A stretch of 64,000 nucleotides of DNA from an uncultured Chloroflexia bacterium. GTDB lineage: Bacteria; Chloroflexota; Limnocylindria; Limnocylindrales; CSP1-4. The DNA lies in contig OY970218.1 of NCBI GenBank assembly GCA_963713975.1, positions 128,001-192,000 of the forward strand. The letters run 5' to 3'. Shown piece by piece: positions 43,213 through 64,000 of the stretch (its first letter is position 1; the number at the start of each line of letters is the position of its first letter). Under the pieces are notes generated by a model. That model was not told where the DNA came from. It worked only from the letters and a program-made list of their open reading frames with translations, and did not search any database. The position numbers were made by a program, and so were the translations under genes.

Positions 43213-43229
43213 TATGCTCGATAATCGAT
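43213..43229 (+). promoter_or_regulatory. -10 TATGCT plus putative GntR operator TCGATAATCGAT
   Basis: AT-rich motif recurring at 58835-58856 and 59886-59897. Confidence 0.65.
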
Positions 43230-43274
43230 GATCTGGCGCAGGGCGGTGCCTGGCAGGTCCGAGAAGGAGCATAG

Positions 43275-44060
43275 ATGAGCTATCTCGACAGCTTTAGCCT
43301 CGAGGGCAAGGTGGCCCTGGTCCCCGGTGGTGGCGGCGCGATCGGGGCGGCCATCGCGGGGGCACTGGCGGGCGCGGGCGCGAGGGTCGCCGTCGTGGAC
43401 GTGACCCAGGACCGCGCCGACGCATCCGCGGACACCATCCGCGCCAACGGCGCCGACGTCCTGGCGCTCGCCGCCGACGTGACCAGCGAGGCCGACTGCG
43501 AGCGCATCGTCGCTGCCACGGTGGAGCGGTTCGGCAGGCTAGACATCATCGTCAACTGCGTCGGCGGCGGCGCCGGCAAGGTGCTCCACGACGCCCAGGA
43601 CTACCCGCGGAACGACTGGGACTGGATCATGGAGCTCAACGTCCGCTCCACGCTGCTCGCGACCCAGGCCGCGGTGAAGGCGATGATCAAGGCCGGCAAC
43701 GGCGGTGCGGTCGTCAACATCAGCTCCGTGCGGGCCGACCTCGGCATCAACGCGGGTTACTCGGCGTACGTGGCGGCGAAGGGGGCGATCAGCTCCCTCA
43801 CTCGCCAGTGGGCCACCGAGTGGGCCAAGCACGGGATCCGGGTCAACGCCATCCGCCCCACGTTCGTGGACACGCCCCAGGTCGCCATGCTGCTTGACGA
43901 TCCGGCCTTCAAGGCCGGCGTCGTCGGCCGCATCCCGCTCGGGCGCGTGGGCGACACCGCCGACATGACCGGCCCCGTGGTGTTCCTGTGCTCGAACGCC
44001 GCTTCATTCGTCACCGGCCAGGTCCTGGGCGTCGACGGCGGACTGACCGCCACCCAGTAG
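43275..44060 (+). CDS. Short-chain dehydrogenase/reductase (SDR)
   Basis: GGGGAIG, NISS, YVAAK, IRVNAI, VTGQVLGVDGG; SD AAGGAG. Confidence 0.92.
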   Translation: MSYLDSFSLEGKVALVPGGGGAIGAAIAGALAGAGARVAVVDVTQDRADASADTIRANGADVLALAADVTSEADCERIVAATVERFGRLDIIVNCVGGGAGKVLHDAQDYPRNDWDWIMELNVRSTLLATQAAVKAMIKAGNGGAVVNISSVRADLGINAGYSAYVAAKGAISSLTRQWATEWAKHGIRVNAIRPTFVDTPQVAMLLDDPAFKAGVVGRIPLGRVGDTADMTGPVVFLCSNAASFVTGQVLGVDGGLTATQ

Positions 44061-44082
44061 TCCATTAGAGGGAGCCCACGCC

Positions 44083-44976
44083 ATGCAGCAGGTCACCGAC
44101 CGCATCTTCGCCGAGACGAAGGTGCGCGGCTGCAACCCGTCCTTCGTGCTCACGTCCAAGGGTCCCGTGGTCATCGACACCCCGCAGTTGCCGACGAAGG
44201 CCGTCGAGATGCGCAAGGCGGTCGAGGAGCACGGGACGATCCAGTACGTCATCAACACCGAGCACCACGTCGACCACATCTTCGGCAACTACTGGTTCAA
44301 GGGCGCCGGCCCGATCATCCACCACCAGGGCGTGCACGAGCGGTTCATGACCGTCTACCCGGAGCTGGACCCGTTCGCCTATGCGCTCGAGGCCCTGCCC
44401 ACCGACGACCCGGACGGCGCCGCGCTGGTGCCCGACCGCGAGACCTACTACGCGAACATGGGCACGGCCGACATCGTCTTCTCCGGCGATGTGACCCTCA
44501 AGGTCGGCGACCGGACCTTCCACCTGCTCCATACCCCGGGTCACACGCCGGGCCAGGTCGCGGTGTACGTGCCCGAAGAGCGGGCCGTGTTCACGGGCGA
44601 CACCATCTTCTCCGAGTGCACGACGTGGCTGATGACCTCGGACGTGGAGCAGTGGATCGCGGCGCTCGACCGGATCCGCGCCCTCGACATCGACATCGTC
44701 ATCCCGGGCCACGGTCCGGTCCAGGACAAGGCCTACCTCGCGACCCAGCGCTCGTTCATGCTCGAGTGGAAGGCCGCCGTGGCGGTGGCCGTGGCCAAGG
44801 GCTGGTCCCGCGAGGAGACCATGGCGCGGGTGAGCTTCGCCGAGCGCTATCCGGTGGACATCGGGCAGGAATACATGATGGATTACATCCAGGAGCGGAA
44901 CGCCGGGGCCCTCTACGACAAGTTCACGGCCCCCACCAACACGACCTATCCCGCCAAGGAAGCGCCGCCGCGCTGA
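44083..44976 (+). CDS. Metallo-beta-lactamase-fold hydrolase
   Basis: VIDT, NTEHHVDHIFGN, TPGHT, FTGD, IPGHG. Confidence 0.9.
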   Translation: MQQVTDRIFAETKVRGCNPSFVLTSKGPVVIDTPQLPTKAVEMRKAVEEHGTIQYVINTEHHVDHIFGNYWFKGAGPIIHHQGVHERFMTVYPELDPFAYALEALPTDDPDGAALVPDRETYYANMGTADIVFSGDVTLKVGDRTFHLLHTPGHTPGQVAVYVPEERAVFTGDTIFSECTTWLMTSDVEQWIAALDRIRALDIDIVIPGHGPVQDKAYLATQRSFMLEWKAAVAVAVAKGWSREETMARVSFAERYPVDIGQEYMMDYIQERNAGALYDKFTAPTNTTYPAKEAPPR

Positions 44977-45037
44977 TCGCCTCGCCGGCGTGGCCGGACC
45001 GCCTGGCGTCCGGCCAACCATCTGAAGGAGGCATCAC

Positions 45038-45351
45038 GATGTCCGCCCTGCCTGCCACGATGGAGGCCCTCGTCGTCCTCGAGCCCTCGGTGCTCGAGAT
45101 CCAGGAGGTCCCCGTCCCGGTGCCCGGACCCAACGAGGTCCTCGCGCGGGTCCGCGCCGTGTCCATCTGCGGCACCGACGCCCACCTCATCCGGGGCGAC
45201 TACCCGGGCTTCTGGCCGCCCGCATTCCCGTTCATCCCGGGCCACGAGTGGGCGGGCGAGATCGCGGCTCTGGGCCCCGGTGCCGAGCGCTTCGGCTGGC
45301 AGGTGGGCGACCGCGTGGCCGGCACCAGCCACGACGCCTGCGGCGTGTGCC
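45038..45351 (+). repeat. 314-bp inverted repeat, left copy (partner 50401-50714)
   Basis: Read by eye as identical to the reverse complement of 50401-50714, including wobble positions. Confidence 0.88.
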
Positions 45352-46103
45352 GCGAATGCGTGGAAGGCCGCTACAACCTGTGCGAGAACTACGGGCGCGA
45401 GGGGCTGCACCGCCAGTACGGCCACAGCGTCCAGGGTGCCAATGCCACATACGTGGTCCAGGGCGTCAAGACCATCTTCGCGCTCCCCAACGGCCTCACG
45501 TTCGAGGACGGGGCGCTGATCGATCCGGCGTCCATCGCCCTCCACGTCGCCAACCGCGGCAACATCACCCCGGGCGACACCGTGGCCATCACCGGCGCCG
45601 GGGCGATCGGGCTCCTGGGCGGCGACGCCGCGCGCATCCGCGGCGCCGGCCGCGTGATCGTGGTGGGCCGGGGCCACCGCCTCCAGAAGGCGGCGGCGAT
45701 GGGCTTCGAGACCGTCAACACCGCCGCCGGCGATCCGGTTGGCCAGGTCCGGGCGATGACCGGCGGCCTCGGCGCTGACGTCGTGCTCGAGTGCGCCGGC
45801 GTCCCGCAGATGGTCGAGGCGGCGCTCGAGATGCTCCGGCGCGGGGGCCGGTGCGCGGCCGTCGGCATCCCCACGGTGGGCGTGGAGATCGCCATGCAGC
45901 GTCTTGTCCTGGACGAGCTGGAGCTGGTTGGCTCACGGGCCTCGGCGGGCGAGATGCGCCGCGTGATCCCGCACGTCGAGCAGGGCAACATGCGCGTCCG
46001 CGAGATGGTGACGCACCGGTTTGCGCTGGTGGACTACGCGGAGGCCCTGGCGACCTTCAACGACCGTTCGAGCGGGGCGATCAAGATCCTCGTCAACCCG
46101 TAA
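45039..46103 (+). CDS. Zn-dependent dehydrogenase (MDR; threonine/sorbitol DH-like), copy 1
   Basis: ICGTD, GHE, CGVCRECVEGRYNLC, GAGAIG; SD AAGGAGG. Confidence 0.92.
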   Translation: MSALPATMEALVVLEPSVLEIQEVPVPVPGPNEVLARVRAVSICGTDAHLIRGDYPGFWPPAFPFIPGHEWAGEIAALGPGAERFGWQVGDRVAGTSHDACGVCRECVEGRYNLCENYGREGLHRQYGHSVQGANATYVVQGVKTIFALPNGLTFEDGALIDPASIALHVANRGNITPGDTVAITGAGAIGLLGGDAARIRGAGRVIVVGRGHRLQKAAAMGFETVNTAAGDPVGQVRAMTGGLGADVVLECAGVPQMVEAALEMLRRGGRCAAVGIPTVGVEIAMQRLVLDELELVGSRASAGEMRRVIPHVEQGNMRVREMVTHRFALVDYAEALATFNDRSSGAIKILVNP

Positions 46104-46115
46104 GGAGCGCCTCAC

Positions 46116-46622
46116 GTGTCACCTGGCAAGCCGACGCTCGACCCGTCACCGGTCGTCTACCGGTCGCTGGTCCGGATCGAGCCCGGTCCCGACAAGTCGA
46201 AGCTGGTATTCCTCCCCGCCGAGGAGGATCCGGTGATCATGGGCTTTCAGGGCGACCTGGCCCCGCGCTTCGGGCTTGTCGAGGGGTCCTACACGCCGCG
46301 GGCTTCGACGCTCGACTACCTCGTCGGGGCAACGGCCGGATGCATGACGGGGGTCTTCGCCGCCGGCCTGAAGGCCCGCTCCATCCCGGTCGACCGCGAC
46401 AGCCTCGAGGTCGAGGCCACTGGGGAGGTCGAGACCGAGGGAGGCATCCTCGTACTCCGGCGGATCCACGTGGTGCTGCACCTCCGCGCGAGGGAGACCG
46501 ACCGCGCTGCCGCGACGCGGTTGGCCGCGACCTACGAACAGGCGTGTCCGGTCTACCGCTCGCTGCACTCGACGATCGACATCACCTCGGAGCTCGACTT
46601 CCGGGCGATCGCCGACCAGTAG
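46116..46622 (+). CDS. OsmC/Ohr family protein
   Basis: ATAGCMTG and EQACPVY two-Cys pattern. Confidence 0.85.
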   Translation: MSPGKPTLDPSPVVYRSLVRIEPGPDKSKLVFLPAEEDPVIMGFQGDLAPRFGLVEGSYTPRASTLDYLVGATAGCMTGVFAAGLKARSIPVDRDSLEVEATGEVETEGGILVLRRIHVVLHLRARETDRAAATRLAATYEQACPVYRSLHSTIDITSELDFRAIADQ

Positions 46623-46682: not shown

Positions 46683-47453
46683 TCAGATCGCGTCCGACAA
46701 CCCCAGGGTCAGCCCGCCGTCGATGTCGATGACCGCGCCGGTCACCCAGCGCCCGCCGTCGCCCGCGAGCCAGGCCACGGCCTCGGCGATGTCGCTCCCC
46801 TGCCCCACCGATGACAGGGCCTGACGGCCGAAGTGCATGCCGGTCTCGAACCGGGTCCGCTCCTCGTCCTCCGTTGCCCCGCGCAGCTCCGACGGGATGA
46901 TGCCCGGGCGGATGCAGTTGACGCGGATCCCGTCGCGGCCGAGATCCGCAGCAAGGGCTCGGGTCATCGCCTCGACCGCGGCCTTGCTGGCCACGTAACC
47001 GAACCGTCCGTGCGGCGGCCGGCCGACCACCGTCGACCCGAGGTTGACGACCATCCCGCGGCTCCGCCGGAGCTCCGGGAGGGCGGCACGGATCATCAGG
47101 AACACGCTCACGACGTTCCCGCGCAGCATGCCCTCGAGGTCCGCGAGGGCGAGCTGCTCCAGGCCGCCCTGGACCTCGGCGCCGGCGTTGTTGACCAGGA
47201 CGTCGATGCCGCCCAGCTCATGGACTGCCGCCGCCACGAGGGCCTCCACGTCGGCCTCGACCGTGACGTCCGCACGGCATGGGACCACGCGGCCGGGGAC
47301 GCCGGCAAGCTCCGAGGCGAGTGCCTCGAGCCGCTCGAGGCGGCGACCGACGGCGACGACCTGCGCACCGCGACCGGCAAGCATCCGGACGGTGTGTGCA
47401 CCCAGCCCTGCCGACGCGCCGGTGACGATGATCCGGCGACCCTCGATGGTCAT
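46683..47453 (-). CDS. Short-chain dehydrogenase/reductase (SDR)
   Basis: TGASAGLG, NNAG, YVASK, IRVN, VTGAVIDIDGG. Confidence 0.92.
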   Translation of the reverse strand: MTIEGRRIIVTGASAGLGAHTVRMLAGRGAQVVAVGRRLERLEALASELAGVPGRVVPCRADVTVEADVEALVAAAVHELGGIDVLVNNAGAEVQGGLEQLALADLEGMLRGNVVSVFLMIRAALPELRRSRGMVVNLGSTVVGRPPHGRFGYVASKAAVEAMTRALAADLGRDGIRVNCIRPGIIPSELRGATEDEERTRFETGMHFGRQALSSVGQGSDIAEAVAWLAGDGGRWVTGAVIDIDGGLTLGLSDAI

Positions 47454-47472: not shown

Positions 47473-49605
47473 TCAGGCCCGGCCCGCCGCCACCTCACCG
47501 GCCCGGGTGCGGCCGGCCAGGAGGATCAGGTCCTCGTGGAGCTCGAACCAGACACCGTGGTAGCTGTCAACACGCGGCGACGCGATGTACTTGCCGTTCC
47601 CGCCGGCTGCGGCGGCGGCTGCCGCCCCCAGGCGCGCCCCGTAGTGGGCGAGCCGCTGCAGGCCGGTGACCAGGGGGCTGAGCCACGCATCGACATCGGC
47701 GTGGAGCTCGGCCAGACTGGCGAGCACGGCGGCGTCGTAGGCCGCATCGGCGTGGTCGTTGATCTGGCCCTCGCCCTTCATCTGCCAGGAGGTGACGATC
47801 TGCTTCATCCGCTTGTCGAGCGCCACGAACGCGTCCAGCGCGGCCCCGGCCGCCTCGGTGCCCCACGCCGTCCTGTCCTCTGCGAGCCGCTCTATCCCCA
47901 CCGACTTGCCGTCGGCGGTCAGCCGGAATGAGCCCGCGGCGAGCTCCGCAAGTCCATCGGCGACAAGCCGGTCGAGGAGCGCCGCGGCATCCTCGGCGCC
48001 GCAGCCCAGCGCCGCGGCCATGCCGGCGGCATCGCAATAGCCCTTGATCGCCAGCACGCGGATGGCGAGCTCCGGGGAGGCACCGTCGCCGGTGCCCGGG
48101 ACCCGCTCCGTCATGGTCGCCTCCTCCGTCGCGGTCCCCTCTCCCGCCAGCTCGATGCCAAGCTCGTGTGCCCAAGCGGCCAGGATCTTCGCCTCGGGAA
48201 CGACCGTCGCCACGCCGGCGGCCATGCCCTCGAACACCTCGCCGGTCGCCCCGTCGATCGTGATGACCGTGCCGGCCGCCAACGTCAGTCCGCCCATGCT
48301 GACGCCCCCGGCGCCGATCATGACACCCGAGGCGCCCACCACGGCCGGGATCCCCCAGCCACGCGCAACCACCGCCGCGTGCGACGCGAAGCCGCCGGTC
48401 GTGGTCAGGATGCCCCGGCTGCGGGACATGCCGTGGACGTCGTCGGGCGAGGTCTCGGCCCGCACAAGGATCGCATCCCGGCCGGCGTCGGCGACGGCAA
48501 CCGCGTCCTCGGGCGTGAGGCATATCTCGCCGCAGGCGACGCCCGGCGAGGCCGGCAGGCCGGTGGCCAAGACCGGCCCGGCGTCGGAGCGCTCGCTCAC
48601 CGTGCTCGGCGGGGCGGCGAGGATCGCAGTCACCCGGCGCACCGCCTCCGCGCGGGTCAGTGGGAACTCCGGGTCTTCGGCCATCTCCAAGGCCATCCGC
48701 AGGGCGGCCTGCGGGGTGCGCTTGCCGATCCGGACCTGGAGCATCCACAGCCGGCCCTGCTCGATCGTGAACTCGATGTCGCAGCAGTCACGGTAGTGCT
48801 GCTCGAGCGTTTCGGCGTAGCGGCGCAGCTCCGCCGCCACCTCCGGCAGCTGCCTGTCGAGGCACGTGATCGGCTCGGTCGAGTGCGTCCCTGCGACGAC
48901 GTCCTCGCCCTGGGCGTCGAACATCACGTCACCGTAGAGCGTGTCCTCGCCGGTCGCGGGGTTGCGGGTGAACAGCACGCCGGTCCCGGAGTCGGCACCG
49001 CGATTGCCGAATACCATCGCCTGGACCGTCACGCCGGTACCCAGCTCGTCGCTGATGCCCTCGTGCTCGCGATACGCCTTGGCCCGGGGCGAGTTCCAAG
49101 ACCGGAACACCGCCTCGATGGCGCCTCGAAGCTGTGCCCACGGGTCGACCGGCACCTCGTCCACGCCCACGACGTCCCGGTAGATTGCGTGGAAGCGGTC
49201 GTGGCAGTTGCGTGCGAACCCGGGGTTCCCCGAGACGGTCGCGAGGCCAGCCTCGGTGTCGCGGTTGAGTCCGAGATTGAGGATCGTGTCCATCATCCCC
49301 GGCATGGACCGAGGGGCCCCGCTCCGAACCGACACCAAGAGCGGGTCGGCGGGATCGCCGAACCGCCGCCCGACCTGGGCCTCGAGGGCGACCATCGCCG
49401 TGCGCAGCTCGGCGTCGAGACCGTTTGGCCAGCCGGTCGCGAGGTAGGCCTTGCAGGCCTCGGTCGTGATCGTGAACGCCGGGGGAACCGGGAGGCAGAG
49501 GTCCACGGCCATCGTCGCGATGTTCGCGGCCTTGCCGCCCAGCAGCAGCGTGGTCGCGGCAGGGTCGAGGTCGTGGCGGTGATCGTAGGCGTAGACGTAC
49601 GGCAC
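47473..49605 (-). CDS. PPDK-like protein (ATP-grasp and phospho-His domains) lacking the pyruvate-binding barrel, fused to a wHTH/helical domain
   Basis: GGKAAN, SVRSGA, SMPGMMDT, QAMVFGN, AQGEDVVAG, DIEFT, GGFASHAAVVARG; ends in a ~210-aa domain with NDH...YD and DSYHGVWFELHEDL. Confidence 0.85.
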   Translation of the reverse strand: MPYVYAYDHRHDLDPAATTLLLGGKAANIATMAVDLCLPVPPAFTITTEACKAYLATGWPNGLDAELRTAMVALEAQVGRRFGDPADPLLVSVRSGAPRSMPGMMDTILNLGLNRDTEAGLATVSGNPGFARNCHDRFHAIYRDVVGVDEVPVDPWAQLRGAIEAVFRSWNSPRAKAYREHEGISDELGTGVTVQAMVFGNRGADSGTGVLFTRNPATGEDTLYGDVMFDAQGEDVVAGTHSTEPITCLDRQLPEVAAELRRYAETLEQHYRDCCDIEFTIEQGRLWMLQVRIGKRTPQAALRMALEMAEDPEFPLTRAEAVRRVTAILAAPPSTVSERSDAGPVLATGLPASPGVACGEICLTPEDAVAVADAGRDAILVRAETSPDDVHGMSRSRGILTTTGGFASHAAVVARGWGIPAVVGASGVMIGAGGVSMGGLTLAAGTVITIDGATGEVFEGMAAGVATVVPEAKILAAWAHELGIELAGEGTATEEATMTERVPGTGDGASPELAIRVLAIKGYCDAAGMAAALGCGAEDAAALLDRLVADGLAELAAGSFRLTADGKSVGIERLAEDRTAWGTEAAGAALDAFVALDKRMKQIVTSWQMKGEGQINDHADAAYDAAVLASLAELHADVDAWLSPLVTGLQRLAHYGARLGAAAAAAAGGNGKYIASPRVDSYHGVWFELHEDLILLAGRTRAGEVAAGRA

Positions 49606-49645: not shown

Positions 49646-50713
49646 TCAGGGCTCGACGATGATCTTGATCGCTCCGCTGCCGGGGTCGTTGAACGTCGCC
49701 AGGGCGGACGGGTAGTCGCTCAGCGGGAAGTGGTGCGTGATGACGTCGTCGACCCTGATCCGGTTCTGCTCGACCAGGGGCATCACACGCCGCATCTCGC
49801 CCGCGGTCGCGCGGCAACCGACAAGCTCGAGCTCGTCCAGGACCAGGCGCTGCATCGCGATCTCGACACCGGTTGTGGGGATCCCGACGGCCGCGCACCG
49901 TCCGCCGCGGCGGAGCATGCCGAGGGCCATCTGCACAGTGACGGGCACGCCTGCGCATTCGAGGACCACGTCCACGCCCAGGCCGCCGGTCATCGCCCGC
50001 ACGGTGGCCACGGGGTCTCCGGCGCCCGAGTCGACCGCCTCGAAGCCCATCGAGCGGGCCTTTGCGAGGCGACCGGGGTTGTTCTCCAGCAGGATCACGC
50101 GGCCGGCGCCACGGACGAGCGCGGCGTCGCCGCCCAGGAGCCCGATCGCCCCGGCGCCGGTGATGGCCACGGTGTCGCCCGGGGTGATGTTGCCGCGGTT
50201 GGCGACGTGGAGGGCGATGGACGCCGGATCGATGACGGCACCCTGCGCGAAGGACAGGCCATCCGGCAGGGGGAACACGCACTTCACCCCGTGGACCGCG
50301 TAGGTGGCGTCCACGCCCTGGACGCTGTGGCCGTACTGCTTGTGGAGGCCGGGCTTGCCGTAGTTGTCGCAGAGGTTGTAGCGGCCTTCCACGCACATCT
50401 GGCACACGCCGCAGGCGTCGTGGCTGGTGCCGGCCACGCGGTCGCCCACCTGCCAGCCGAAGCGCTCGGCACCGGGGCCCAGAGCCGCGATCTCGCCCGC
50501 CCACTCGTGGCCCGGGATGAACGGGAATGCGGGCGGCCAGAAGCCCGGGTAGTCGCCCCGGATGAGGTGGGCGTCGGTGCCGCAGATGGACACGGCGCGG
50601 ACCCGCGCGAGGACCTCGTTGGGTCCGGGCACCGGGACGGGGACCTCCTGGATCTCGAGCACCGAGGGCTCGAGGACGACGAGGGCCTCCATCGTGGCAG
50701 GCAGGGCGGACAT
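49646..50713 (-). CDS. Zn-dependent dehydrogenase (MDR), copy 2
   Basis: Same motifs as copy 1; first ~104 aa identical. Confidence 0.92.
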   Translation of the reverse strand: MSALPATMEALVVLEPSVLEIQEVPVPVPGPNEVLARVRAVSICGTDAHLIRGDYPGFWPPAFPFIPGHEWAGEIAALGPGAERFGWQVGDRVAGTSHDACGVCQMCVEGRYNLCDNYGKPGLHKQYGHSVQGVDATYAVHGVKCVFPLPDGLSFAQGAVIDPASIALHVANRGNITPGDTVAITGAGAIGLLGGDAALVRGAGRVILLENNPGRLAKARSMGFEAVDSGAGDPVATVRAMTGGLGVDVVLECAGVPVTVQMALGMLRRGGRCAAVGIPTTGVEIAMQRLVLDELELVGCRATAGEMRRVMPLVEQNRIRVDDVITHHFPLSDYPSALATFNDPGSGAIKIIVEP

Positions 50714-53913: not shown

Positions 53914-54386
53914 CGACCGGCCCCGTCTGCGGTGGTGCGGATGGCGTCGAAGATCTGCTCGTAGCAGGCACAGCGGCAGAGGTTGCCTGCCATGCCCTCC
54001 TCGATCTCGGTCTGGCTGGGATGCGGATGCTCCTCGAGCAGCGCGTGCGCCGAGACGAGTTGCCCCGGGATGCAGAACCCGCACTGCACCGCCCCCTGGT
54101 CAAGGAACGCGGCCTGCAACGGCGAGAGCACGCCGGCGTCGGCCAGGCCCTCGACGGTGAGGATCTCGGACCCGTCCGCCTCCACGGCCAGGACGAGACA
54201 CGAATCCACCGTCCGGCCATCCACCATCACGGTGCAGGCGCCACACTCGCCCACCAGGCAGCACTCCTTGGCGCCGGTGAGGGCCAGGTCGTCGCGCAGG
54301 ACGTCGAGCAGCGTGTGGTTCGGGGCCACGTCCACCGTGCGGGGCGCGCCGTTGATCGTGACCTCGATGGGGATGTTCGGGATCAT
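53910..54386 (-). CDS. Xanthine dehydrogenase-family 2Fe-2S subunit
   Basis: CCLVGECGACT, QCGFC, GNLCRC. Confidence 0.93.
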   Translation of the reverse strand: MIPNIPIEVTINGAPRTVDVAPNHTLLDVLRDDLALTGAKECCLVGECGACTVMVDGRTVDSCLVLAVEADGSEILTVEGLADAGVLSPLQAAFLDQGAVQCGFCIPGQLVSAHALLEEHPHPSQTEIEEGMAGNLCRCACYEQIFDAIRTTADGAGR

Positions 54387-56943: not shown

Positions 56944-58677
56944 CTAGAGGATCTCGACCACGCCGGCGTTGCCGTCGACGCGGATCCGATCCCCGGTCTT
57001 GATCCGGTAGGTGCCGACGGACGTGCCAACGACGGCCGGGATCTCGTACTCGCGGGCGAGCACCGCCGGGTGGGCGACGAGGTCGCCCGCGTTGGTCACC
57101 ACCGCGATGATCTTCCCGTACAGGACCTGCCAGGCCGGGTTGGTCATCTCGCACACGAGGATCTCGCCCGGGACGAGGCTGTCGAACTCGTCGGTCGACA
57201 TGACGACGCGCGCCACGCCCTCGACGACGCCCGGCGAGCCGCCGATGCCGACGATCGTGTCGCCTTCCATCTCGCGCGGCCGGTTGAACTTGTCCGGGAA
57301 GCCCCAGAGGTTCAGGTACGGGAAGGCGAGCTGCGTCTGGGTGACGGTGCCGACCCAGTCCTTCGGCCGGACCTGCTCGGCCGCGGCCCGCTTTGCCCGG
57401 GCGGCCTCGGCGATCGCACGCCCGCTCTCGGCATCCGGTGCCCCCATGAACTCGCGGAGCCCGTTGTAGCGGAACAGGATCGTGTCGTCCGGCCGATCGA
57501 GCATGCCCATCTCGACCAGCTTCTCGCCGATGGCGACGAGGACGAGACGGACGTGCGCGTTGGCGCCCTGGTCGATGTAGAAGTGGTGATCAGGCGTGAG
57601 CGGCGCCATCTTGAGGTTGATCTCGTTGGCGGCGCGCATCTTCTCGAGCGCCTCGCCCTCGAGCCCCTCGAGGATCTGTGCCGCCGCGGCCTCGATGTCG
57701 GCCTTGAGGGCCGCGACCTTGGACGGGTAGTCGTAGTCCGACGTGTACTGGTCCCGCACGAGCTGGATGACCGGGTTCATGTCCTCGCGGAAGGAGGGGT
57801 AGATGAACTCGTGGCTCCAGACGGCGTGCCAGCCGAACTCTTTCTGGTACGGGACGACCTTCTCGGCGAGGAACCGCCGGCCCGTCTCGGTGGCCTCGAG
57901 GGCCGGGACGATCGACGTGGCGCCCACCTTGGCGAAGGCGGCCTGCAGCTCCGCGCTGGTCTTGACCTCCTCCTTCATCTCCCACAGGGCGCGGATCTTG
58001 TCCCAGTTGCGGTCGTCCGCGGAGTTCTGGAGACGGCCCAGGAGGACGTTGTCGATCTTGCCGTGGGTCTCCTCCATGACCGCCCGCAGGTTGAGCGTCG
58101 CGCTGAGCTGCGCGAAGTTCAGCATCCAGTGGATCTTCCAGTGGCGGTCATGCATGTCGATGGCGTCCTCGAGGAGGACGGCCAGGTCGGCGAGGGAGAG
58201 GTCCGCCTTCCGGTCGAGCATGCTCTCGATATAGTCGAAGTTGCGCTGCATCTCCGGCACGAAGCGCGTCTTCCACCAGAAGGTGAAGTTCTGGCCGTAG
58301 ACCGGCAGGACGAGGCCGAGGTACGCCCCGATCTTGGCTGCGTACTCGTTGTCCTCGGGGACGATGGGGTGGGTCTGGTAGTTGTACTCCTGCGTGGCGA
58401 CGTCGACGCCGGCCTCGGCCGGGATGGCGGTCGTGTACAGGTAGCCGTTGATGTTCTTGTAGATCCAGTCCGACGCGAACGGGGTTCCGAAGCGGCGGAA
58501 CATGTGGTCGCACGAGAGCCACCAGCCGCCGATGTCCTCATACATCGGGCTCAGCGGCTTGGGGCAGTGGAGGTCGTCGAAGACCCAGAACAGCAGCTTC
58601 TCGGTCTCGGACGTCCACTCGATCGGGAACGACTCGTCCCCCAGGAACTCGCCGAGGACTTCTTCCTTCAGGGGCAC
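56944..58677 (-). CDS. PEP-utilising phospho-His protein resembling phenylphosphate synthase alpha subunit
   Basis: FWVFDDLHCPKPLSP N-terminus, PDHHFYID, C-terminal GSPGVVEG, ILVCEMTNP, AHPAVLAREYEIPAVVG, RVDG..G.V; no ATP-grasp domain. Confidence 0.8.
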   Translation of the reverse strand: MPLKEEVLGEFLGDESFPIEWTSETEKLLFWVFDDLHCPKPLSPMYEDIGGWWLSCDHMFRRFGTPFASDWIYKNINGYLYTTAIPAEAGVDVATQEYNYQTHPIVPEDNEYAAKIGAYLGLVLPVYGQNFTFWWKTRFVPEMQRNFDYIESMLDRKADLSLADLAVLLEDAIDMHDRHWKIHWMLNFAQLSATLNLRAVMEETHGKIDNVLLGRLQNSADDRNWDKIRALWEMKEEVKTSAELQAAFAKVGATSIVPALEATETGRRFLAEKVVPYQKEFGWHAVWSHEFIYPSFREDMNPVIQLVRDQYTSDYDYPSKVAALKADIEAAAAQILEGLEGEALEKMRAANEINLKMAPLTPDHHFYIDQGANAHVRLVLVAIGEKLVEMGMLDRPDDTILFRYNGLREFMGAPDAESGRAIAEAARAKRAAAEQVRPKDWVGTVTQTQLAFPYLNLWGFPDKFNRPREMEGDTIVGIGGSPGVVEGVARVVMSTDEFDSLVPGEILVCEMTNPAWQVLYGKIIAVVTNAGDLVAHPAVLAREYEIPAVVGTSVGTYRIKTGDRIRVDGNAGVVEIL

Positions 58678-58834: not shown

Positions 58835-58885
58835 ATCGATAATCGATTGTCGATAACACTAGGGCCCTTCTCCTCCCGCAGTCAA
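58835..58885 (-). promoter_or_regulatory. Promoter TTGACT-N18-TAGTGT with triple TCGA operator array
   Basis: Plus strand atcgataatcgattgtcgataa (58835-58856) lies directly downstream of the minus-strand -10. Confidence 0.7.
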
Positions 58886-59812
58886 GGGCGATCTCGCAGG
58901 CGCCGGGCGCTGGGCGAGGACGACCGCCACGAGGATCGCGCACCCGCCGGCCATCTCCGCGACGGTCAGCCGCTGGCCCAGAACCACGGCCGCTACGACG
59001 ACCGCGACGACCGGTTCCATCAGCAGTGCCACCGCCGCCCGCGTGCTGCCGATCAGGCGCACGCCGCCCATGATCCACACCTTGGGCAGCGCGCCGACGG
59101 TCCCGGCACACAGGATCGCGACCCAGGCGACCGGCGATGCCAGCCACTCGCCCGCCACGCCGGCCCCGTACATCACGAGCGAGGCGGTGCCCGAGATCGC
59201 CAGCCCGCCCGCGAGGACGAGCGAGGTGGCCTGGACGCCGGGGACGTCGTCGAACCCGCCGCGGATCGCCACGAGGTACACCGCGTGGCAGGCCGATGCG
59301 ATGCCGGCAAGCGCGATGCCCACCGCGGTCGCGTGGGCCCCGGGGCCCAGCTGGCTGCCGAGGATCAGGGCGATGCCGGCAAGCGCCATGGCGAGCGCGA
59401 CGATCCGGGGCCGCGTCAGTCGCTCCCGGCCGAGTGCGGCAGACATCAGGGCCACGAGCGTCGGGTAGCAGTAGTAGACGGCCATGACCAGCGCGACGGC
59501 CATCGCCCCGAAGGCAAAGAACAGGACGAGGTTCATCGCTCCGTTGACGGCCATCGCCAGCGCGAGCATGACCTTCTGTCGACTCGGCAGCCGAGCGAGG
59601 CTGACCGATGGCTGTCGCCCGGAGATCACGAGCGCGCCGAGGATGGACATCCCGATGGCCGCCCGAAGCGCGCTGAAGGTCGCCGGGTCCACCCCCTCGG
59701 TGTAGGCCACCGCGGCGACCGGTCCGAGCGTGCCCATCGCGGCCGCCGCCGCAAGCACCTTGAGCAGGCCGCCGGCACCCCGGTCGCGCGCCATCAACCC
59801 GGTGACCGCCAT
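58859..59812 (-). CDS. EamA/DMT family transporter
   Basis: About 10 TM segments, YYCYPTLV...GRE and EPVVAV...LGQ motifs. Confidence 0.88.
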   Translation of the reverse strand: MAVTGLMARDRGAGGLLKVLAAAAAMGTLGPVAAVAYTEGVDPATFSALRAAIGMSILGALVISGRQPSVSLARLPSRQKVMLALAMAVNGAMNLVLFFAFGAMAVALVMAVYYCYPTLVALMSAALGRERLTRPRIVALAMALAGIALILGSQLGPGAHATAVGIALAGIASACHAVYLVAIRGGFDDVPGVQATSLVLAGGLAISGTASLVMYGAGVAGEWLASPVAWVAILCAGTVGALPKVWIMGGVRLIGSTRAAVALLMEPVVAVVVAAVVLGQRLTVAEMAGGCAILVAVVLAQRPAPARSPLTAGGEGP

Positions 59813-59853: not shown

Positions 59854-59912
59854 TTGCAATCCGGCACTCGGGCCTACTACTATCCTCGATTATCGATGAT
59901 TGTTCATCATCG
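59854..59912 (+). promoter_or_regulatory. Promoter TTGCAA-N18-TACTAT with operator TCGATTATCGAT
   Basis: Same motif as at 43218 and 58835; also an inverted pair CGATGA...TCATCG. Confidence 0.65.
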
Positions 59913-60094: not shown

Positions 60095-60967
60095 ATGGAG
60101 TTCATCACCCAATCCCTCGTCATCGGGCTCACCGAGAACGCGCCCCTGGTCCTCGCCGCGATCGGCTTCGCCCTGCTGTACCGCCTCACCGGGCTCATCA
60201 ACGTCGCCTACGCGGAGACCATCACGCTCGGGGCCTACTTCGGGATGTGGATCAACACCACGTACGGCCTCGACTTCTACGCCGTCCTGATCCCGACCGG
60301 GCTCCTGGCGGGTACGCTCAGCGTCATCACGTACCTGGCAATCTTCCGACCGGCGAAACGCCGCAACGTGGGCGGTCTCGAGATGATCATCATCTCCTTC
60401 GGGCTGGCCATCTTCCTGCGCCACGGGCTGCAGTTCGTGTTCGGCTACCCGCAGCGGTTCTATGACGTCCCACCGCCGGACACGATCATGATCCTGGGGG
60501 TCGGCGCGACGTCGTTCCGCATGGTCGCCCTCGCGAGCGTCGCGGCACTCTCGCTCGTGCTGTACCTGTTCATCCAGCGAACCAGCTACGGCCTCAAGGT
60601 ACGGGCCCTGGCCAGCGACGAGGACCTGGCTCGGGTCAGCGGGATCCGGCCCCTCGTCGTCACCGTGATGATCTGGTTCATCGCCGGCGTCGCCGGCGGA
60701 TTGGCCGGCGCGTTCTATGGAGTTGGTTCGGCCGTCTCACCGCTGCTCGGCTCGCGCCAGTTCCTGCTCATCCTGATGGTGGCTCTCGTGGGAGGTAGCT
60801 GGGGGCTTGGCGGCGTCATCCTCGTCGGGGTGGGCACCGGAGTGGCGCTGGTCGCCATGGCGCTCCAGTTCGACCAGGTCCTGTATGCGCAGCTGGTACT
60901 GATCGTCGCCTTCGTCATCGTCCTGAAGCTGCGCGGCACGCGGCTCACCGAGAAGGCAAAGGTGTAG
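60095..60967 (+). CDS. livH: Branched-chain amino acid-type ABC permease
   Basis: AIGFAL...GLINVAY, GLKVRALASD, VALVGG. Confidence 0.85.
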   Translation: MEFITQSLVIGLTENAPLVLAAIGFALLYRLTGLINVAYAETITLGAYFGMWINTTYGLDFYAVLIPTGLLAGTLSVITYLAIFRPAKRRNVGGLEMIIISFGLAIFLRHGLQFVFGYPQRFYDVPPPDTIMILGVGATSFRMVALASVAALSLVLYLFIQRTSYGLKVRALASDEDLARVSGIRPLVVTVMIWFIAGVAGGLAGAFYGVGSAVSPLLGSRQFLLILMVALVGGSWGLGGVILVGVGTGVALVAMALQFDQVLYAQLVLIVAFVIVLKLRGTRLTEKAKV

Positions 60968-60971
60968 CGCG

Positions 60972-61922
60972 ATGACGCTTGACTGGCTCGACGCCTTCCT
61001 GATCACCGGGCTCTTCCAGGTCGTGATGGTGACCGGCCTCGCGTTGCTGCTCCACCTCCAGCTGGGACTCACACGGATCGCCAACTTCGGCGTGGTCGGC
61101 TTCTGGGGCATCGGGATGTACGTCTTCGGCGTCCTGTACGTTCAGGTCGACTGGCCGTTCGGGGACCCTTGGCTGTTCCTCGCCTGCGCCGCCGCCGCCA
61201 CGCTGGTCACGGGTGCAGCCGGGCTCCTCGTCGGATGGCTGGTCTCCGATCTGGACACGGACGGCGTGCTGGTGGGCACGCTCGGCTTCGCCACCGCCGT
61301 CCAGATCCTGGCGACCACCCAGGACGACATCACCGGTGGTGCCCGGGGCATGGGAGGGCTCGCCTTCCCCTTCGACATCGGCAAGGTGAAGGAAAACGAG
61401 TTCCTGTGGCTGGTGATCACGGCCGTCGTCGTCGCCGCGATCCTGTTCTTCGTCTGGCGGGTCCACCGCTCGCCCTATGGACGCCTCCTCATCGCCGTGG
61501 GCGGCAACGAGCCGCTGGCGCGCAGCCTTGGGAAGTCGACCTTCCGCACCAAGCTCGGGCTGTTCGCCATCACGTCGGCTGGCATGGGACTACTCGGTGC
61601 GATGAACGGAGTGATGGTGCGCTACCTGGACATCGGCAGCCTCGGGATCGGCATCACCCTCGCCGCGATGGCAGGGCTGATCCTGGGCGGCACGGCGCGA
61701 GTCTGGGGCGCGGTCGTCGGGGTGATCCTCACGGTTGGCCTGTTCGACATCGTGATCCAGTCCTACGTGCCGTTCCCCCGGGAGTGGTACACGCAGGCGA
61801 TCCCCGTGCTCAGGGAGGCCGTGTTCGGCCTGACACTGATCCTCGTCCTGATGTTCCGACCGTTGGGCATCCTGGGCGACATGCGGCGCGACAAGATGAT
61901 GGAAAAGCTCCATGGTCGCTGA
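60972..61922 (+). CDS. livM: Branched-chain amino acid-type ABC permease
   Basis: NFGVVGFWGIG, TLGFA, TGGARG, SPYGR, ILGG, RPLGI. Confidence 0.85.
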   Translation: MTLDWLDAFLITGLFQVVMVTGLALLLHLQLGLTRIANFGVVGFWGIGMYVFGVLYVQVDWPFGDPWLFLACAAAATLVTGAAGLLVGWLVSDLDTDGVLVGTLGFATAVQILATTQDDITGGARGMGGLAFPFDIGKVKENEFLWLVITAVVVAAILFFVWRVHRSPYGRLLIAVGGNEPLARSLGKSTFRTKLGLFAITSAGMGLLGAMNGVMVRYLDIGSLGIGITLAAMAGLILGGTARVWGAVVGVILTVGLFDIVIQSYVPFPREWYTQAIPVLREAVFGLTLILVLMFRPLGILGDMRRDKMMEKLHGR

Positions 61923-62706
61923 CGTCGTCGATACCGTGGCCGTGACCCGCGCCCGGATCCGGATCCAGGGCGCGGTCAAGAGCTTCTCAGGCAGGGTTGT
62001 CGTGGATGTCGACGACGTCCTTCTGGGCGAGCGGCCGATCGGGGGCTTGATCGGCCCCAATGGCGCCGGCAAGACAACGCTGATGCGCATGATCATGCGC
62101 TCCACGCCGCTCGATCGCGGCCGGATCACCCTCCTCCCACCGAGTGGCCAGGAGGTGGTGCTGTCGAGCCTGCCGGCACACCGGCACGCGGACCACGGCG
62201 TCGTGAAGTCCAACCAGGTGATCATGGACTTCGAGAAGCTCACGATCTGGGACTCGCTGCTGCTGGCCGTGGCCGAGGCGAGGTACGAGCAGCCCCACCG
62301 GATCTTCAGCGAGCGAAAGGTCTTCAAGCAGCACGAGGACGAGATCCGGCACTATCTGGACTACTTCGGGTTCGCCGACCCGACGGCGTTCGCGCTGTCG
62401 GCCGGCGAGAAGAAGCTCCTCGACATCGTGCGCTGCCTGCTCCTGAAGCCGGCCTTCCTGCTGCTCGACGAGCCGACGGCGGGCCTTCCCGACGACCTGA
62501 CCGAGAAGGTCATGACCGTGGTCCGGGACCTCGCGGCCGCCGGCACCTCGGTCGTCATCGTGGAGCACGACCTCAACCTCATCTGGAACCTCTGCGACGA
62601 GGTCCTGTTCATGGCCGAGGGGAGCGTCATCTTGCGGGGCGACCCACAGGACATCCGCGAGCACCGGACCGTCGTTGAGAAGTACCTGGGCGAGGGCCAT
62701 GTCTGA
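61912..62706 (+). CDS. livG: ABC ATP-binding protein (LivG-like)
   Basis: GLIGPNGAGKTT, LSAGEKK, LLDEPTAG, VEH. Confidence 0.88.
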   Translation: MVADVVDTVAVTRARIRIQGAVKSFSGRVVVDVDDVLLGERPIGGLIGPNGAGKTTLMRMIMRSTPLDRGRITLLPPSGQEVVLSSLPAHRHADHGVVKSNQVIMDFEKLTIWDSLLLAVAEARYEQPHRIFSERKVFKQHEDEIRHYLDYFGFADPTAFALSAGEKKLLDIVRCLLLKPAFLLLDEPTAGLPDDLTEKVMTVVRDLAAAGTSVVIVEHDLNLIWNLCDEVLFMAEGSVILRGDPQDIREHRTVVEKYLGEGHV

Positions 62707-63415
62707 GACATCCGGATCCGTCATGCTTCAGGTCGAGGGGCTGCGCAGCGGCTACCACGGGGTTACCGTCCTCAAGGGGCTCGACTTCACGGTCGGCAAC
62801 GAGATCTTTACCGTGCTGGGCGCCAACGGGGCGGGCAAGACGACGCTGCTTGCGACCCTGGCGCGCCTGATCCCCCTCATGGCGGGGGGGATCCGGTTCC
62901 AGGGTGCGGACGTGTCGTCCCTGCGCCCGTACGAAACCGCCGGCCGGGGGATCGGATATGTGCCCCAGGAGAAGGGCGTCTTCGCCGACCTGACCGTCGT
63001 CGAGAACCTCACCGTGGGGGGAATGATCGGCAAGCGCTCCCGCGAGGAGCGGATGGCCGAGGTGTTCGACCTGTTCCCGGACCTGCAGGCCCTCCGGGCA
63101 CAGAAGGCGGGGACCCTCAGCGGCGGCGAGTCGCGCATGGTGGCCTGCGGGCGGGCCCTGATGCAGGACCCCAAGATGCTGCTCCTTGATGAGCCCACGG
63201 CTGGCCTCTCCCCGCTCTACGTGGACCTGTTCTTCGACAAGATCAAGGAGATCCACGAGACCAAAGGGGTCGCGATCGTCCTCGCCGAGCAGAACGCCAC
63301 CAAGGCGCTCCAGGTCGCCGACCGGGTGATGGTACTCAGCCTCGGCCAGGCATCCGCCGTGGTGGACGCCGCAGAGATGACCACGCAACAACTCAAGGAG
63401 GGCTACCGGATCTGA
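62699..63415 (+). CDS. livF: ABC ATP-binding protein (LivF-like)
   Basis: GANGAGKTT, YVPQ, TVVENL, LSGGE, LLDEPTAGLSP, EQN. Confidence 0.9.
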   Translation: MSETSGSVMLQVEGLRSGYHGVTVLKGLDFTVGNEIFTVLGANGAGKTTLLATLARLIPLMAGGIRFQGADVSSLRPYETAGRGIGYVPQEKGVFADLTVVENLTVGGMIGKRSREERMAEVFDLFPDLQALRAQKAGTLSGGESRMVACGRALMQDPKMLLLDEPTAGLSPLYVDLFFDKIKEIHETKGVAIVLAEQNATKALQVADRVMVLSLGQASAVVDAAEMTTQQLKEGYRI

Positions 63416-63452
63416 GACCCATCCTTCAGGGTAGGACACAGGAGGAGATGCA

Positions 63453-64000
63453 ATGAGGGTCATTGGCACCACGGCGGGCCGAACCGTCGTTTCCATCGCC
63501 GCACTCGCGCTGCTCGTGTCAGCGTGCAACAACGGTGGTGCCGCAACCGCGGCACCCGCGGAGTCAGCCGCGGCGCCGGGCGCCGAATCGGCGGCTCCGA
63601 GCGCGGCGGCCGAGTCGCCCGCCGCGGGACCGGTGACGGTCTGCGAGCTTGCCTACTACACCGGTGCGTTTGCCGCGTACGGTCCGGCGCTCACCAACGA
63701 CGTTCGCTTCCCGATCGAAGAGGTCATCAATCTCGACCCGCCGCTCGGACGCACCTGGGAGCTGGTCTCCGAGGACATCGGCGACGACCATGAGGGCCAG
63801 GCAGCCAAGATCTGCCTCGAGCAGCACAAGGCCGAGATCGTGGTGAGCATCGCCCACCAGTACCGGACCTACCGCGACTACATGATGGAGTGGTGGCAGG
63901 AGAACGACTCACCGCTCGGGCCGTCGGTCCACGGCGGCGCCATCCCCGGCAACCTCGGCGGCAAGGGCGAGGAGCCGATCTTCCGGGCCCAGGGCCTTGA
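63453..64000 (+). CDS. ABC substrate-binding lipoprotein (partial, runs off window)
   Basis: Manual translation: MRVIGTTAGRTVVSIAALALLVSAC (lipobox), Ala/Pro/Ser linker, YYTGAFAAYG; SD GGAGGAG. Confidence 0.85.
   Translation, partial: MRVIGTTAGRTVVSIAALALLVSACNNGGAATAAPAESAAAPGAESAAPSAAAESPAAGPVTVCELAYYTGAFAAYGPALTNDVRFPIEEVINLDPPLGRTWELVSEDIGDDHEGQAAKICLEQHKAEIVVSIAHQYRTYRDYMMEWWQENDSPLGPSVHGGAIPGNLGGKGEEPIFRAQGL

Follow-up and report, generated by a model that had tools for sequence, protein, structure and literature searches.

A conserved, co-regulated gene island joining phosphohistidine proteins to a molybdenum hydroxylase in an uncultured Chloroflexota lineage

Why should the genes of a molybdenum hydroxylase share an operon with genes for proteins that carry phosphate on a histidine? 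The question is raised by a 64,000-nt stretch of DNA from an uncultured Chloroflexia bacterium (assembly GCA_963713975.1, contig OY970218.1), which we refer to as the window and which corresponds to C1:128001-192000 of a one-contig, 3.62-Mb genome of 92% estimated completeness. A sequence-only reading of the window had proposed a catabolic island under one shared operator, in which ATP-dependent activation through phosphohistidine is coupled to a hydroxylase of the xanthine dehydrogenase (XDH) family. We found that the island is real, that it is conserved in its lineage, and that it is co-regulated; the operator, together with synteny in 80 related loci, upholds the proposal of a co-regulated, conserved catabolic unit. 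The coupling at its centre, that of a PpsA/RPH-like phosphohistidine protein (577 aa) and an ATP-binding protein derived from pyruvate-phosphate dikinase (PPDK; 710 aa) with an XDH-family enzyme, was likewise recovered from Pfam, NCBIfam and PDB matches and from synteny.

Ten genes form a long minus-strand operon (58677 to 46683) in which neighbours overlap or are separated by gaps of at most 40 nt. From the first gene onward they encode the 577-aa protein, a GntR/FCD regulator, a P-loop protein, the FAD, [2Fe-2S] and Mo subunits of the XDH-family enzyme, a cyclase, a zinc-dependent alcohol dehydrogenase (Zn-ADH), the PPDK fusion of 710 aa, and a short-chain dehydrogenase/reductase (SDR). The shared operator is an 11-nt palindrome, TCGAT[A/T]ATCGA, that was recognised by reading intergenic DNA; a repeat search (seed 10, minimum length 14) did not reveal it. 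The window holds three exact copies (Table 1) against 0.08 expected, a number attained in none of 100 shuffles, and seven matches against 2.4 expected if one mismatch is allowed. All three exact copies lie in promoter-side intergenic DNA, the first of them 21 nt upstream of the start of a gene of the N-formylglutamate amidohydrolase (FGase) family, and a fourth lies outside the window, at window-equivalent position 65032, ahead of a cupin gene. In the whole genome there are 15 such palindromes with any central base and just five with a central A/T, of which four fall inside the island, within 22 kb. The lone A/T-centred copy outside the island is at C1:468060, where the surroundings resemble coding sequence. 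Among the 80 related loci, 63 carry the operator (120 sites in 1.37 Mb), and its positions recur at about -170, -1230 and -6350 relative to the gene of the 577-aa protein; many of the 17 loci without it have no upstream DNA or are the most divergent ones. The claim of a shared operator is thus borne out. Its presumed binder is the co-encoded regulator, which has the layout of the FCD subfamily, an N-terminal GntR winged helix-turn-helix domain followed by a C-terminal FCD domain.

Synteny was scored in 80 loci surrounding genes related to that of the 577-aa protein, by tblastn of the window's proteins (E ≤1e-10, coverage ≥60%). Each locus spans at most 10 kb on either side, and many end at contig ends; all are from related Chloroflexota (Limnocylindria-type) metagenome-assembled genomes of one lineage. 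The co-occurrence that the sequence-only reading had called for was found, the core genes each being present in 44-70 of the loci: GntR and the P-loop protein in 70 each, the medium (XDH_M) and small (XDH_S) XDH subunits in 66 each, the large subunit (XDH_L) in 55, the PPDK fusion in 51, the cyclase in 45 and the Zn-ADH in 44. Accessory genes of the window are less constant: LivH is found in 26 loci (at least 70% identity), the drug/metabolite transporter (DMT) gene in 13 and SDR2 in five (at least 67%), and the metallo-beta-lactamase-fold (MBL) hydrolase and its SDR, SDR1, are optional (14/80 and 13/80, the latter at 64% identity or more). For the FGase, OsmC and GT2 genes the count was zero, which is uninformative, as their place in the window is at the limit of the 10-kb flank or past it.

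The 577-aa protein itself has more than 4200 relatives, the best 120 listed being 80-94% identical to it. Of 301 Chloroflexota genomes sampled, 45 matched it with an E value no worse than 1e-30; in 22, our own genome among them, the match reached at least 48% identity, and 21 of these matches were full-length, the other being clipped by a contig end. The P-loop protein was found in eight of the 301, always within about 1 kb of the gene of the 577-aa protein; these are eight of the nine genomes whose 577-aa homologue is at least 63% identical, and none of the others searched had it. Two metatranscriptome-labelled runs, X1 and X2, contain about a twentieth of the sampled words, and their contigs include fragments of relatives, 88-99% alike, that fill 27 (X1) and 17 (X2) of 30 bins and derive mostly from the 577-aa, P-loop and XDH genes (window 54000-60000), which does not show transcription.

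What kind of proteins, then, are the two phosphohistidine partners? Residues 377-577 of the 577-aa protein match the RPH structures 5hv2 and 5fbs at E 4e-20, and its NCBIfam matches (PRK08296, RedH, PigC and RPH) are all under their cut-offs. Its swivel motif, TNAGDLVAH, retains the catalytic His, and T528, G531 and H536 did not vary among 41 sequences; it is of the T/SxxGGxxxH type, which is given for HpeH, CreH and PpsA in the account of HpeHI (PMC12167813). Upstream of the swivel domain lie about 470 residues, with a mean conservation of 80%, that are homologous to the ligand-binding part of RPH, PigC and RedH. An RPH-like ligand domain followed by a C-terminal swivel domain is the make-up of the substrate component in the HpeHI, CreHI and PpsAB dikinases. 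RPH and PigC/RedH have the swivel domain and part of the ligand-binding region in common with the 577-aa protein; they are single polypeptides with an N-terminal ATP-grasp, however, and the 577-aa protein scores far under their cut-offs.

The 710-aa protein consists of a PPDK-type ATP-grasp, a swivel-His domain of its own (GGFASHAAVVAR), and a C-terminal portion of about 200 aa, winged-helix-like and then helical. Residues 20-470 score 515.4 bits, above the cut-off of 456, with the truncated-PPDK family NF004531 of NCBIfam, and the best PDB match is PPDK itself (1ggo, 410 bits); a Pfam search found no PEP-utilizers_C match, the PEP/pyruvate barrel thus being absent. The catalytic His is kept within GGFASHAAVVAR, and Ala occupies the position that holds a regulatory Thr in PPDK. 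The fused form recurs at a coverage of at least 90% in 37 loci. For the C-terminal domain, which folds with confidence (pLDDT 89.9), Foldseek gave no match at E 0.001 or better and only weak matches to winged-helix repressors (E >0.01). When the complex of this domain and the 577-aa protein was predicted, the score was 0.40 against 0.00 for the best control, with at least 76% of contacts common to the runs and a partner pLDDT of at least 86. The mark thereby passed is reached by 116 of 157 solved complexes and by two of 215 mismatches; in the score range up to 0.60, it is reached by just 18 of the 157 solved complexes and by both of the passing mismatches. For docking between the two, the models thus provide weak support.

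The two-component phenolic dikinases PpsAB (phenol), CreHI (4-cresol) and HpeHI are biochemically defined (PMC12167813), and HpeHI and AcvAB are listed as dikinases of acetovanillone and 4-hydroxyacetophenone, of the same kind as PpsAB and CreHI. Like their H or A components, the 577-aa protein combines an RPH-like region with a swivel His and leaves ATP binding to a separate protein. The ATP-binding partners differ: those of the dikinases are PEP-synthase-like, of about 340 aa and swivel-less, whereas the partner in the island is of the PPDK type, 710 aa long, and has its own swivel His. The downstream enzyme differs as well, being a carboxylase or a P450 in the known dikinase systems and a Mo hydroxylase in the island. 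For the 710-aa protein the nearest characterised relative is of another sort. VadK (Rv1127c) of Mycobacterium tuberculosis is a truncated PPDK that autophosphorylates His422 with ATP and Mg (PMC13400623). It belongs to the same NCBIfam family, and both proteins keep the ATP-grasp and the catalytic His and are without the PEP/pyruvate domain; unlike VadK, the 710-aa protein has 240 further residues fused at its C-terminus and is encoded in a catabolic operon with a PpsA-like partner.

The third member of the coupling, the XDH-family enzyme, has the full set of domains of the XDH/CODH family: hammerhead, two MoCo-binding domains, two [2Fe-2S] domains and an FAD domain. The GGGFGGK motif of XDH_L aligns to the templates, the Glu of its GMSEGAL falls on their conserved active-site Glu, and from these alignments the hydroxylase looks catalytically competent. 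The best PDB matches of XDH_L are to 4-hydroxybenzoyl-CoA reductase alpha (1rm6_A, 323 bits) and, next, quinoline 2-oxidoreductase (1t3q_B, 240 bits). That the first of these, whose alpha-subunit model is also the best NCBIfam match of XDH_L, is a reductase raises the thought that the Mo enzyme runs in reverse, as 4-hydroxybenzoyl-CoA reductase does, with a phosphorylated hydroxyl as leaving group that is removed reductively. Every NCBIfam equivalog score of the trio is under its cut-off, however, those for the alpha, beta and gamma subunits of the reductase being 444 (TIGR03194), 130 and 155 bits against 995, 405 and 258, and the identity to HcrA is moderate. A Cys-rich insertion carrying a [4Fe-4S] cluster is a hallmark of the beta subunit of this reductase; XDH_M, with 289 aa and two cysteines, is without it. 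Nor does the island hold a CoA ligase, a ferredoxin or a UbiD. The sequence-only reading had noted that a UbiD-type carboxylase was missing from the window, and a search of the whole genome found no UbiD family gene either. We regard reductive removal of the hydroxyl as most improbable.

A closer parallel to the whole is the 3hpd cluster of Ensifer adhaerens HP1, whose HpdA1A2A3A4 turns 3-hydroxypyridine into 2,5-dihydroxypyridine in a hydroxylation that requires orf9 ("pyruvate-phosphate dikinase") and orf10 ("PEP-utilizing mobile subunit"), both of which are needed for growth (10.1101/2020.01.08.898148). As in the island, an XDH-family Mo/FeS/FAD enzyme is encoded beside PPDK-like and PEP-utilizing proteins, a GntR regulator and an ABC transporter. 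The central idea of the sequence-only reading therefore has precedent, because 3hpd couples a kinase pair with an XDH-family enzyme and the families involved are known. The accompanying remark that no characterised pathway was recognised does not hold for the logic of the system, as 3hpd has a kinase-dependent XDH-family hydroxylase together with GntR and ABC genes; gene for gene, the island does not map onto 3hpd.

Could the island simply be an orthologue of 3hpd, taking 3-hydroxypyridine through 2,5-dihydroxypyridine into the maleamate route? The core gene kinds (XDH subunits, PPDK-like, PEP-utilizing, GntR and ABC transporter) are the same, and the preprint reports 3hpd-like clusters in several phyla, Chloroflexota not being among the taxa that its authors name (10.1101/2020.01.08.898148). 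HpdA3, a separate SRPBCC (CoxG-like) subunit, is described as essential in HP1 (10.1101/2020.01.08.898148), whereas Pfam scans of the island's proteins gave no COXG/SRPBCC match anywhere in the window; a CoxG gene is present in a more distant relative, genome G007. The maleamate-pathway genes hpdBCDE of 3hpd have no counterpart among the Pfam assignments of the island, and the conserved downstream genes are instead a cyclase and a Zn-ADH. Nor was a gene of Peptidase_M29 (PF02073), the fold of the 2,5-dihydroxypyridine dioxygenase NicX, found in the whole genome, one contig of 92% completeness. Plain orthology is thus very unlikely. This makes the island a variant within a known kind of system, distinct from 3hpd itself. 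Particular to it are the PPDK-derived partner fused to an extra domain and bearing its own swivel, a conserved P-loop protein, the lack of an SRPBCC subunit, and the conserved cyclase and Zn-ADH in place of the maleamate genes. A literature search found no account of this cluster type in Chloroflexota, and a search for follow-up studies brought up only the 3hpd preprint and the HpeHI paper as relevant.

The P-loop protein (295 aa) deserves separate attention, as it is among the most constant members of the cluster and has no counterpart in 3hpd. It has 2776 homologues; among the best 120 listed, those that are named are "hypothetical" and none has a Pfam domain, and the protein itself gave no Pfam match (even at E 5), no NCBIfam match and no PDB sequence match. 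It had been described as HprK-like from its sequence. At the level of the fold superfamily this stands, ATP-dependent phosphoenolpyruvate carboxykinase (ATP-PEPCK) and HprK sharing one kind of P-loop fold, but PEPCK is the nearer of the two: in a Foldseek search with the AF2 model (pLDDT 84.4), ATP-PEPCK was the top match (E 1.7e-7, TM 0.45 on the query), ahead of HprK/P (E 1.8e-4, TM 0.23), and there was no Hpr_kinase_C match that would make it an HPr kinase/phosphorylase. A genuine PEPCK is encoded elsewhere in the genome, and hhalign pairs residues 74-130 of the P-loop protein with residues 166-222 of this PEPCK at 32% identity (E 3.9e-4, with a probability of just 36%), a stretch that takes in the P-loop, the AGxIxK and a conserved His. 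In the Atlas, the closest clusters bear the automatic name "PEP carboxykinase family protein". Being about half the size of PEPCK, the protein gives no full-length match (~530 aa) to PF01293, and the likeness is one of fold and of local profile. Because PEPCK leads in the Foldseek, hhalign and Atlas comparisons, "mini-PEPCK" is, for the modelled structure, a closer description than "HprK-like", and we use it below.

How widely do an XDH trio and a PpsA-like protein occur together? The megaplasmid of Thermomicrobium roseum (NC_011961, 56-73 kb) carries a related cluster whose PEP-utilizing gene product is 45% identical to the 577-aa protein. Its genes run LivHM, binding protein, LivGF, a Tm-1-like gene, PEP hydrolase, GntR, cyclase, a 323-aa protein with PPDK_N only, a 205-aa hypothetical protein, XDH_M, FAH, ABM, the PEP-utilizing gene, XDH_L and XDH_S. 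Genome G111 (577-aa homologue 53% identical) follows the same logic, with a histidine phosphatase, MoaC, Amidohydro_2 and another cyclase in addition, and in genome G007 (48%) CoxG/SRPBCC and VOC genes stand beside the XDH trio. In all three the ATP-grasp partner, PpsB-like in T. roseum and G111, is a protein of 304-323 aa with the PPDK_N domain alone. Because it is present in these genomes, the pairing reaches past the Limnocylindria-type cluster. A hidden Markov model of the mini-PEPCK found nothing in the T. roseum locus, or in the Diaphorobacter, Rhodococcus and Mycobacterium branderi loci.

A module free of XDH genes recurs on the Diaphorobacter, Rhodococcus and M. branderi plasmids, adjoining Rieske oxygenases, acyl-CoA dehydrogenases or SDR/VOC genes; it encodes a truncated PPDK, a PEP-utilizing enzyme and, as third member, a protein of about 200 aa. 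This last protein, annotated variously as "hypothetical", as "MarR" or as the C-terminus of an AMP-binding protein, is a homologue (39-40% identity) of the C-terminal domain of the 710-aa fusion, which is thus a separate gene on these plasmids. A match on a Rubrobacter plasmid was rejected as an ordinary full-length ppdK.

To the right, the island continues beyond the window over C1:192001-198152 (window-equivalent 64001-70152), with the rest of the binding protein, the cupin, a split transketolase, a second GntR/FCD regulator (65% identical to the first), a UPF0261 gene and a PEP-hydrolase-like gene; a gene for a calcineurin-like phosphoesterase comes after this extension. At 45% identity or more, the cupin is found in 44 of the 80 loci, the N- and C-terminal transketolase parts in 40 and 35, the UPF0261 gene in 28, the binding protein in 27 and the PEP hydrolase in 22. 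UPF0261 and the PEP hydrolase are also encoded as a pair in T. roseum and in G111. MarK (Saro_1862) of Novosphingobium aromaticivorans, a UPF0261 protein, is described as a multiple aromatic (phenol) kinase, with the structure PDB 9MPY (PMC12624787). The UPF0261 protein of the island scores 258 bits with 9mpy_A and keeps the N-terminal DTK; the MarK type is unlike the dikinases in fold and in mechanism (ATP to ADP), the hallmark of the dikinases being phosphorylation of a phenolic hydroxyl by ATP with release of AMP and phosphate. The distant relatives hold typical aromatic-pathway genes, namely FAH, VOC, Amidohydro_2 and MarK-like UPF0261.

From these comparisons we favour, at about even odds, a reading in which the dikinase-type pair phosphorylates the hydroxyl of an imported aromatic or N-heteroaromatic compound with ATP, after which the Mo hydroxylase oxidises the ring with water. 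The GntR/FCD regulator would bind the palindrome and let go when the substrate or an intermediate is present, and the ABC importer with its binding protein would take the compound up, possibly together with the DMT carrier. The 710-aa protein would then autophosphorylate its own swivel His from ATP, as its relative VadK does, dock on the 577-aa protein through its C-terminal domain and charge the His of that protein, which in turn would pass the phosphoryl group to the hydroxyl of the substrate in the manner of PpsA, CreH and HpeH. By our own chemical reasoning, the phosphate ester would withdraw electrons and thereby favour attack of Mo-OH on the ring; the cyclase-family hydrolase, the Zn-ADH, the SDRs, the MBL hydrolase, the cupin and the split transketolase would process the product afterwards. 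Phosphorylation is placed before hydroxylation because of the HP1 genetics and of this chemistry, from which we infer the order. The sequence-only reading had the substrate hydroxylated first and phosphorylated second, which is the reverse of what the genetics of HP1 indicate, where hydroxylation itself needs the kinase pair.

Several points weigh against this reading. What the sequences show directly are the genes in their ten-gene operon, the palindrome, the persistence of core and palindrome in related genomes, and the domains of each protein; the activities assigned to the proteins of the cluster are predicted by comparison, and the comparison with 3hpd, in turn, is one of gene kinds. The relay from His to His is an extrapolation, because the partner is of the PPDK type with a His of its own, unlike the corresponding component of the dikinases. 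The 80 loci come from one lineage, and the synteny counts are therefore not independent events. The accessory genes of the relatives resemble those of sugar metabolism (split transketolase, transaldolase, FGGY kinase, and ADHs like IolM and Tdh). In HP1, by the account in the preprint, no intermediate was detected, phosphorylated or other, and the authors left the role of orf9 and orf10 open (10.1101/2020.01.08.898148). VadK, finally, is presented as a regulatory kinase that binds enzymes, interacting with those of the methylcitrate cycle, and not as a small-molecule kinase (PMC13400623).

The last two points would suit a different role for the phosphotransfer proteins, that of regulating or maturing the Mo enzyme: they would activate the pathway by phosphorylating a protein, for instance the mini-PEPCK or a subunit of the hydroxylase. 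The winged-helix-like C-terminal domain of the fusion, a fold of macromolecular contacts, would be in keeping with this, though its matches are weak, as would the position of the mini-PEPCK gene, which adjoins that of the FAD subunit (55269 vs 55252). Such a role sits poorly with the ligand-type region of the 577-aa protein, however, as the length and conservation of this region suit a small-molecule site. HpeH, moreover, is reported to transfer phosphate between phenols by itself (PMC12167813), and a second, unrelated family of phenol kinases (UPF0261/MarK) recurs in the same islands. We consider a regulatory role improbable.

If, as in the reading we favour, the kinase pair acts on the substrate, must that substrate be aromatic? 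The accessory genes allow a pathway for sugar-like compounds or cyclitols to be envisaged, in which the XDH enzyme would dehydrogenate aldehydes or aldoses and the dikinase would act on a carbohydrate hydroxyl, as glucan-water dikinases do. Both Zn-ADHs match best the models of scyllo-inosose 3-dehydrogenase (IolM) and threonine dehydrogenase at 196-205 bits, under the cut-offs (ADH2, for instance, scores 196 bits with IolM, the cut-off being 450), and the XDH subunits match models of archaeal glyceraldehyde dehydrogenase, also under the cut-offs. The cupin and the split transketolase are present in 35-44 of the 80 loci, and some related loci hold genes for transaldolase, FGGY kinase and aldehyde dehydrogenase. 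Yet the closest characterised relatives of the kinases act on phenolic or enolic hydroxyls of aromatics, the distant clusters hold FAH, VOC, Amidohydro_2, CoxG and histidine phosphatase, and the best solved relatives of XDH_L, 4-hydroxybenzoyl-CoA reductase and quinoline oxidoreductase, are enzymes of aromatic rings. A carbohydrate substrate is on this evidence unlikely, and we retain an aromatic or N-heteroaromatic hydroxyl as the preferred target. Proteins that might have named the compound are uninformative as to substrate: the PDB sequence search with the binding protein gave one match, at E 3.8e-4, that with the cyclase found as sole relative an uncharacterised protein (5ibz), and that with the cupin gave weak matches alone. 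The idea of a vitamin-B6 substrate, a 3-hydroxypyridine with hydroxymethyl groups, was set aside, as it rests on weak, sub-cut-off NCBIfam matches of SDR2 to pyridoxal dehydrogenase (152 vs 325 bits) and of the MBL hydrolase to pyridoxolactonase (34 vs 325 bits).

The genes and operator copies are collected in Table 1. The window has a GC content of 67-75%, and genes were called from frame plots of third-position GC (GC3), named by Pfam and NCBIfam, and given starts by inspection of start codons and ribosome-binding sites (RBS); by these means every gene type named in the sequence-only reading was found, with minor shifts of coordinates.

Table 1. Genes and operator copies of the island within the window (window coordinates; empty cell, no strand given)
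Feature	Position	Strand	Remarks
N-formylglutamate amidohydrolase family (FGase, PF05013)	42352..43197	-	Pfam 1.7e-50; likely start TTG 43197
Operator copy 1 (TCGATAATCGA)	43218..43228		77-bp divergent region between FGase-family gene and SDR1
SDR oxidoreductase SDR1	43275..44060	+	Pfam adh_short_C2 3e-62
Metallo-beta-lactamase-fold (MBL) hydrolase	44083..44976	+	Pfam Lactamase_B 8.7e-27
Zn-dependent alcohol dehydrogenase ADH1	45039..46103	+	Pfam ADH_N, ADH_zinc_N; ATG 45039, AAGGAGG RBS
OsmC-family protein	46116..46622	+	Pfam OsmC 1.7e-13
SDR oxidoreductase SDR2, 3'-most gene of long operon	46683..47453	-	Pfam adh_short 4.1e-50; ATG 47453
710-aa PPDK fusion	47473..49605	-	Pfam PPDK_N, PEP-utilizers; NCBIfam NF004531
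Zn-dependent alcohol dehydrogenase ADH2	49646..50713	-	Pfam
Cyclase-family (PF04199) metal hydrolase	50747..51637	-	Pfam 5.6e-22; ATG 51637 abuts XDH_L stop
XDH-family molybdopterin-binding large subunit (XDH_L)	51634..53913	-	Pfam Ald_Xan_dh_C, MoCoBD_1, MoCoBD_2
XDH-family [2Fe-2S] small subunit (XDH_S)	53910..54386	-	Pfam Fer2_2, Fer2
XDH-family FAD-binding medium subunit (XDH_M)	54383..55252	-	Pfam FAD_binding_5, CO_deh_flav_C
295-aa P-loop protein (mini-PEPCK)	55269..56156	-	Walker A GESNHGKS; without Pfam or NCBIfam family
GntR/FCD transcription regulator	56173..56910	-	Pfam GntR, FCD
577-aa PpsA/RPH-like swivel-His protein, first gene of operon	56944..58677	-	Pfam PEP-utilizers, residues 503-572
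Operator copy 2 (TCGATAATCGA) with overlapping one-mismatch copy	58836..58853		159 nt upstream of gene of 577-aa protein
EamA/DMT transporter	58859..59812	-	Pfam EamA 9.7e-21; ATG 59812
Operator copy 3 (TCGATTATCGA)	59886..59896		Divergent region between DMT and ABC-importer genes
LivH-, LivM-, LivG-, LivF-like ABC importer	60095..63415	+	Pfam BPD_transp_2 (two), ABC_tran (two)
Peripla_BP_6 substrate-binding protein, 467 aa, 5' part	63453..64000	+	Ends 856 nt past window

Besides the long operon, SDR1, MBL, ADH1 and OsmC form a plus-strand unit (43275-46622), and the EamA/DMT gene diverges from that of the LivHMGF-like importer, which consists of two permeases and two ATPases. The FGase-family gene, which falls to the left of the stretch covered by the sequence-only reading (43213-64000), has operator copy 1 in common with the SDR-MBL-ADH-OsmC unit; from its family, a deformylase or amidase of this type would fit a nitrogen-containing product of ring cleavage. 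Further upstream, the window holds a GT2 glycosyltransferase gene (41065-42291) and, in positions 1-41000, several very large open reading frames with coding-type GC3, among them 2-4084 (minus strand, 1360 aa) and 30261-34268 (plus strand, 1335 aa).

The two Zn-ADH genes are inverted paralogues, with 82% amino acid identity between their products, and their repeat (45038-46105 and 49644-50714) is made up of blocks of 357 nt at 98%, 265 nt at 85% and 428 nt at 74% identity. The 357-nt block comprises the 5' ends of the two genes, whose near-identity suggests recent gene conversion. The pair brackets OsmC, SDR2 and the PPDK fusion, and the inverted arrangement could permit inversion of the intervening 3.5-kb segment. 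Among the 44 related loci that bear an ADH, 41 have a single one and three have a tandem pair.

The preferred reading, in which phosphorylation readies the substrate for the Mo hydroxylase, leaves the mini-PEPCK without a part. A bolder form of it, which we think unlikely, makes the phosphate a traceless, recyclable activator: it would pass from ATP to the His of the fusion, then to the His of the PpsA-like protein and to the ring, the Mo enzyme would take the phospho-ester alone, and the mini-PEPCK would return the phosphoryl group to ADP or put the aryl or enol phosphate through a carboxylation like that of PEPCK. If this were true, the mini-PEPCK would have an enzyme activity not described for the PEPCK-like fold.

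The need of a Mo hydroxylase for ATP-driven phosphohistidine has been without explanation since the 3-hydroxypyridine study, and the cluster type described here, which is common in an uncultured class of Chloroflexota, offers parts with which it can be tested: a PPDK-derived autokinase, a PpsA-like carrier, the mini-PEPCK, the hydroxylase, an operator with its regulator, and a dedicated binding protein. T. roseum, being cultured, could serve as an experimental handle on clusters of this type. A solution would reveal on what compound a pathway abundant in the environment acts, and it would tell whether phosphorylation of the substrate is a general means of readying hydroxylated rings for Mo-dependent oxidation.

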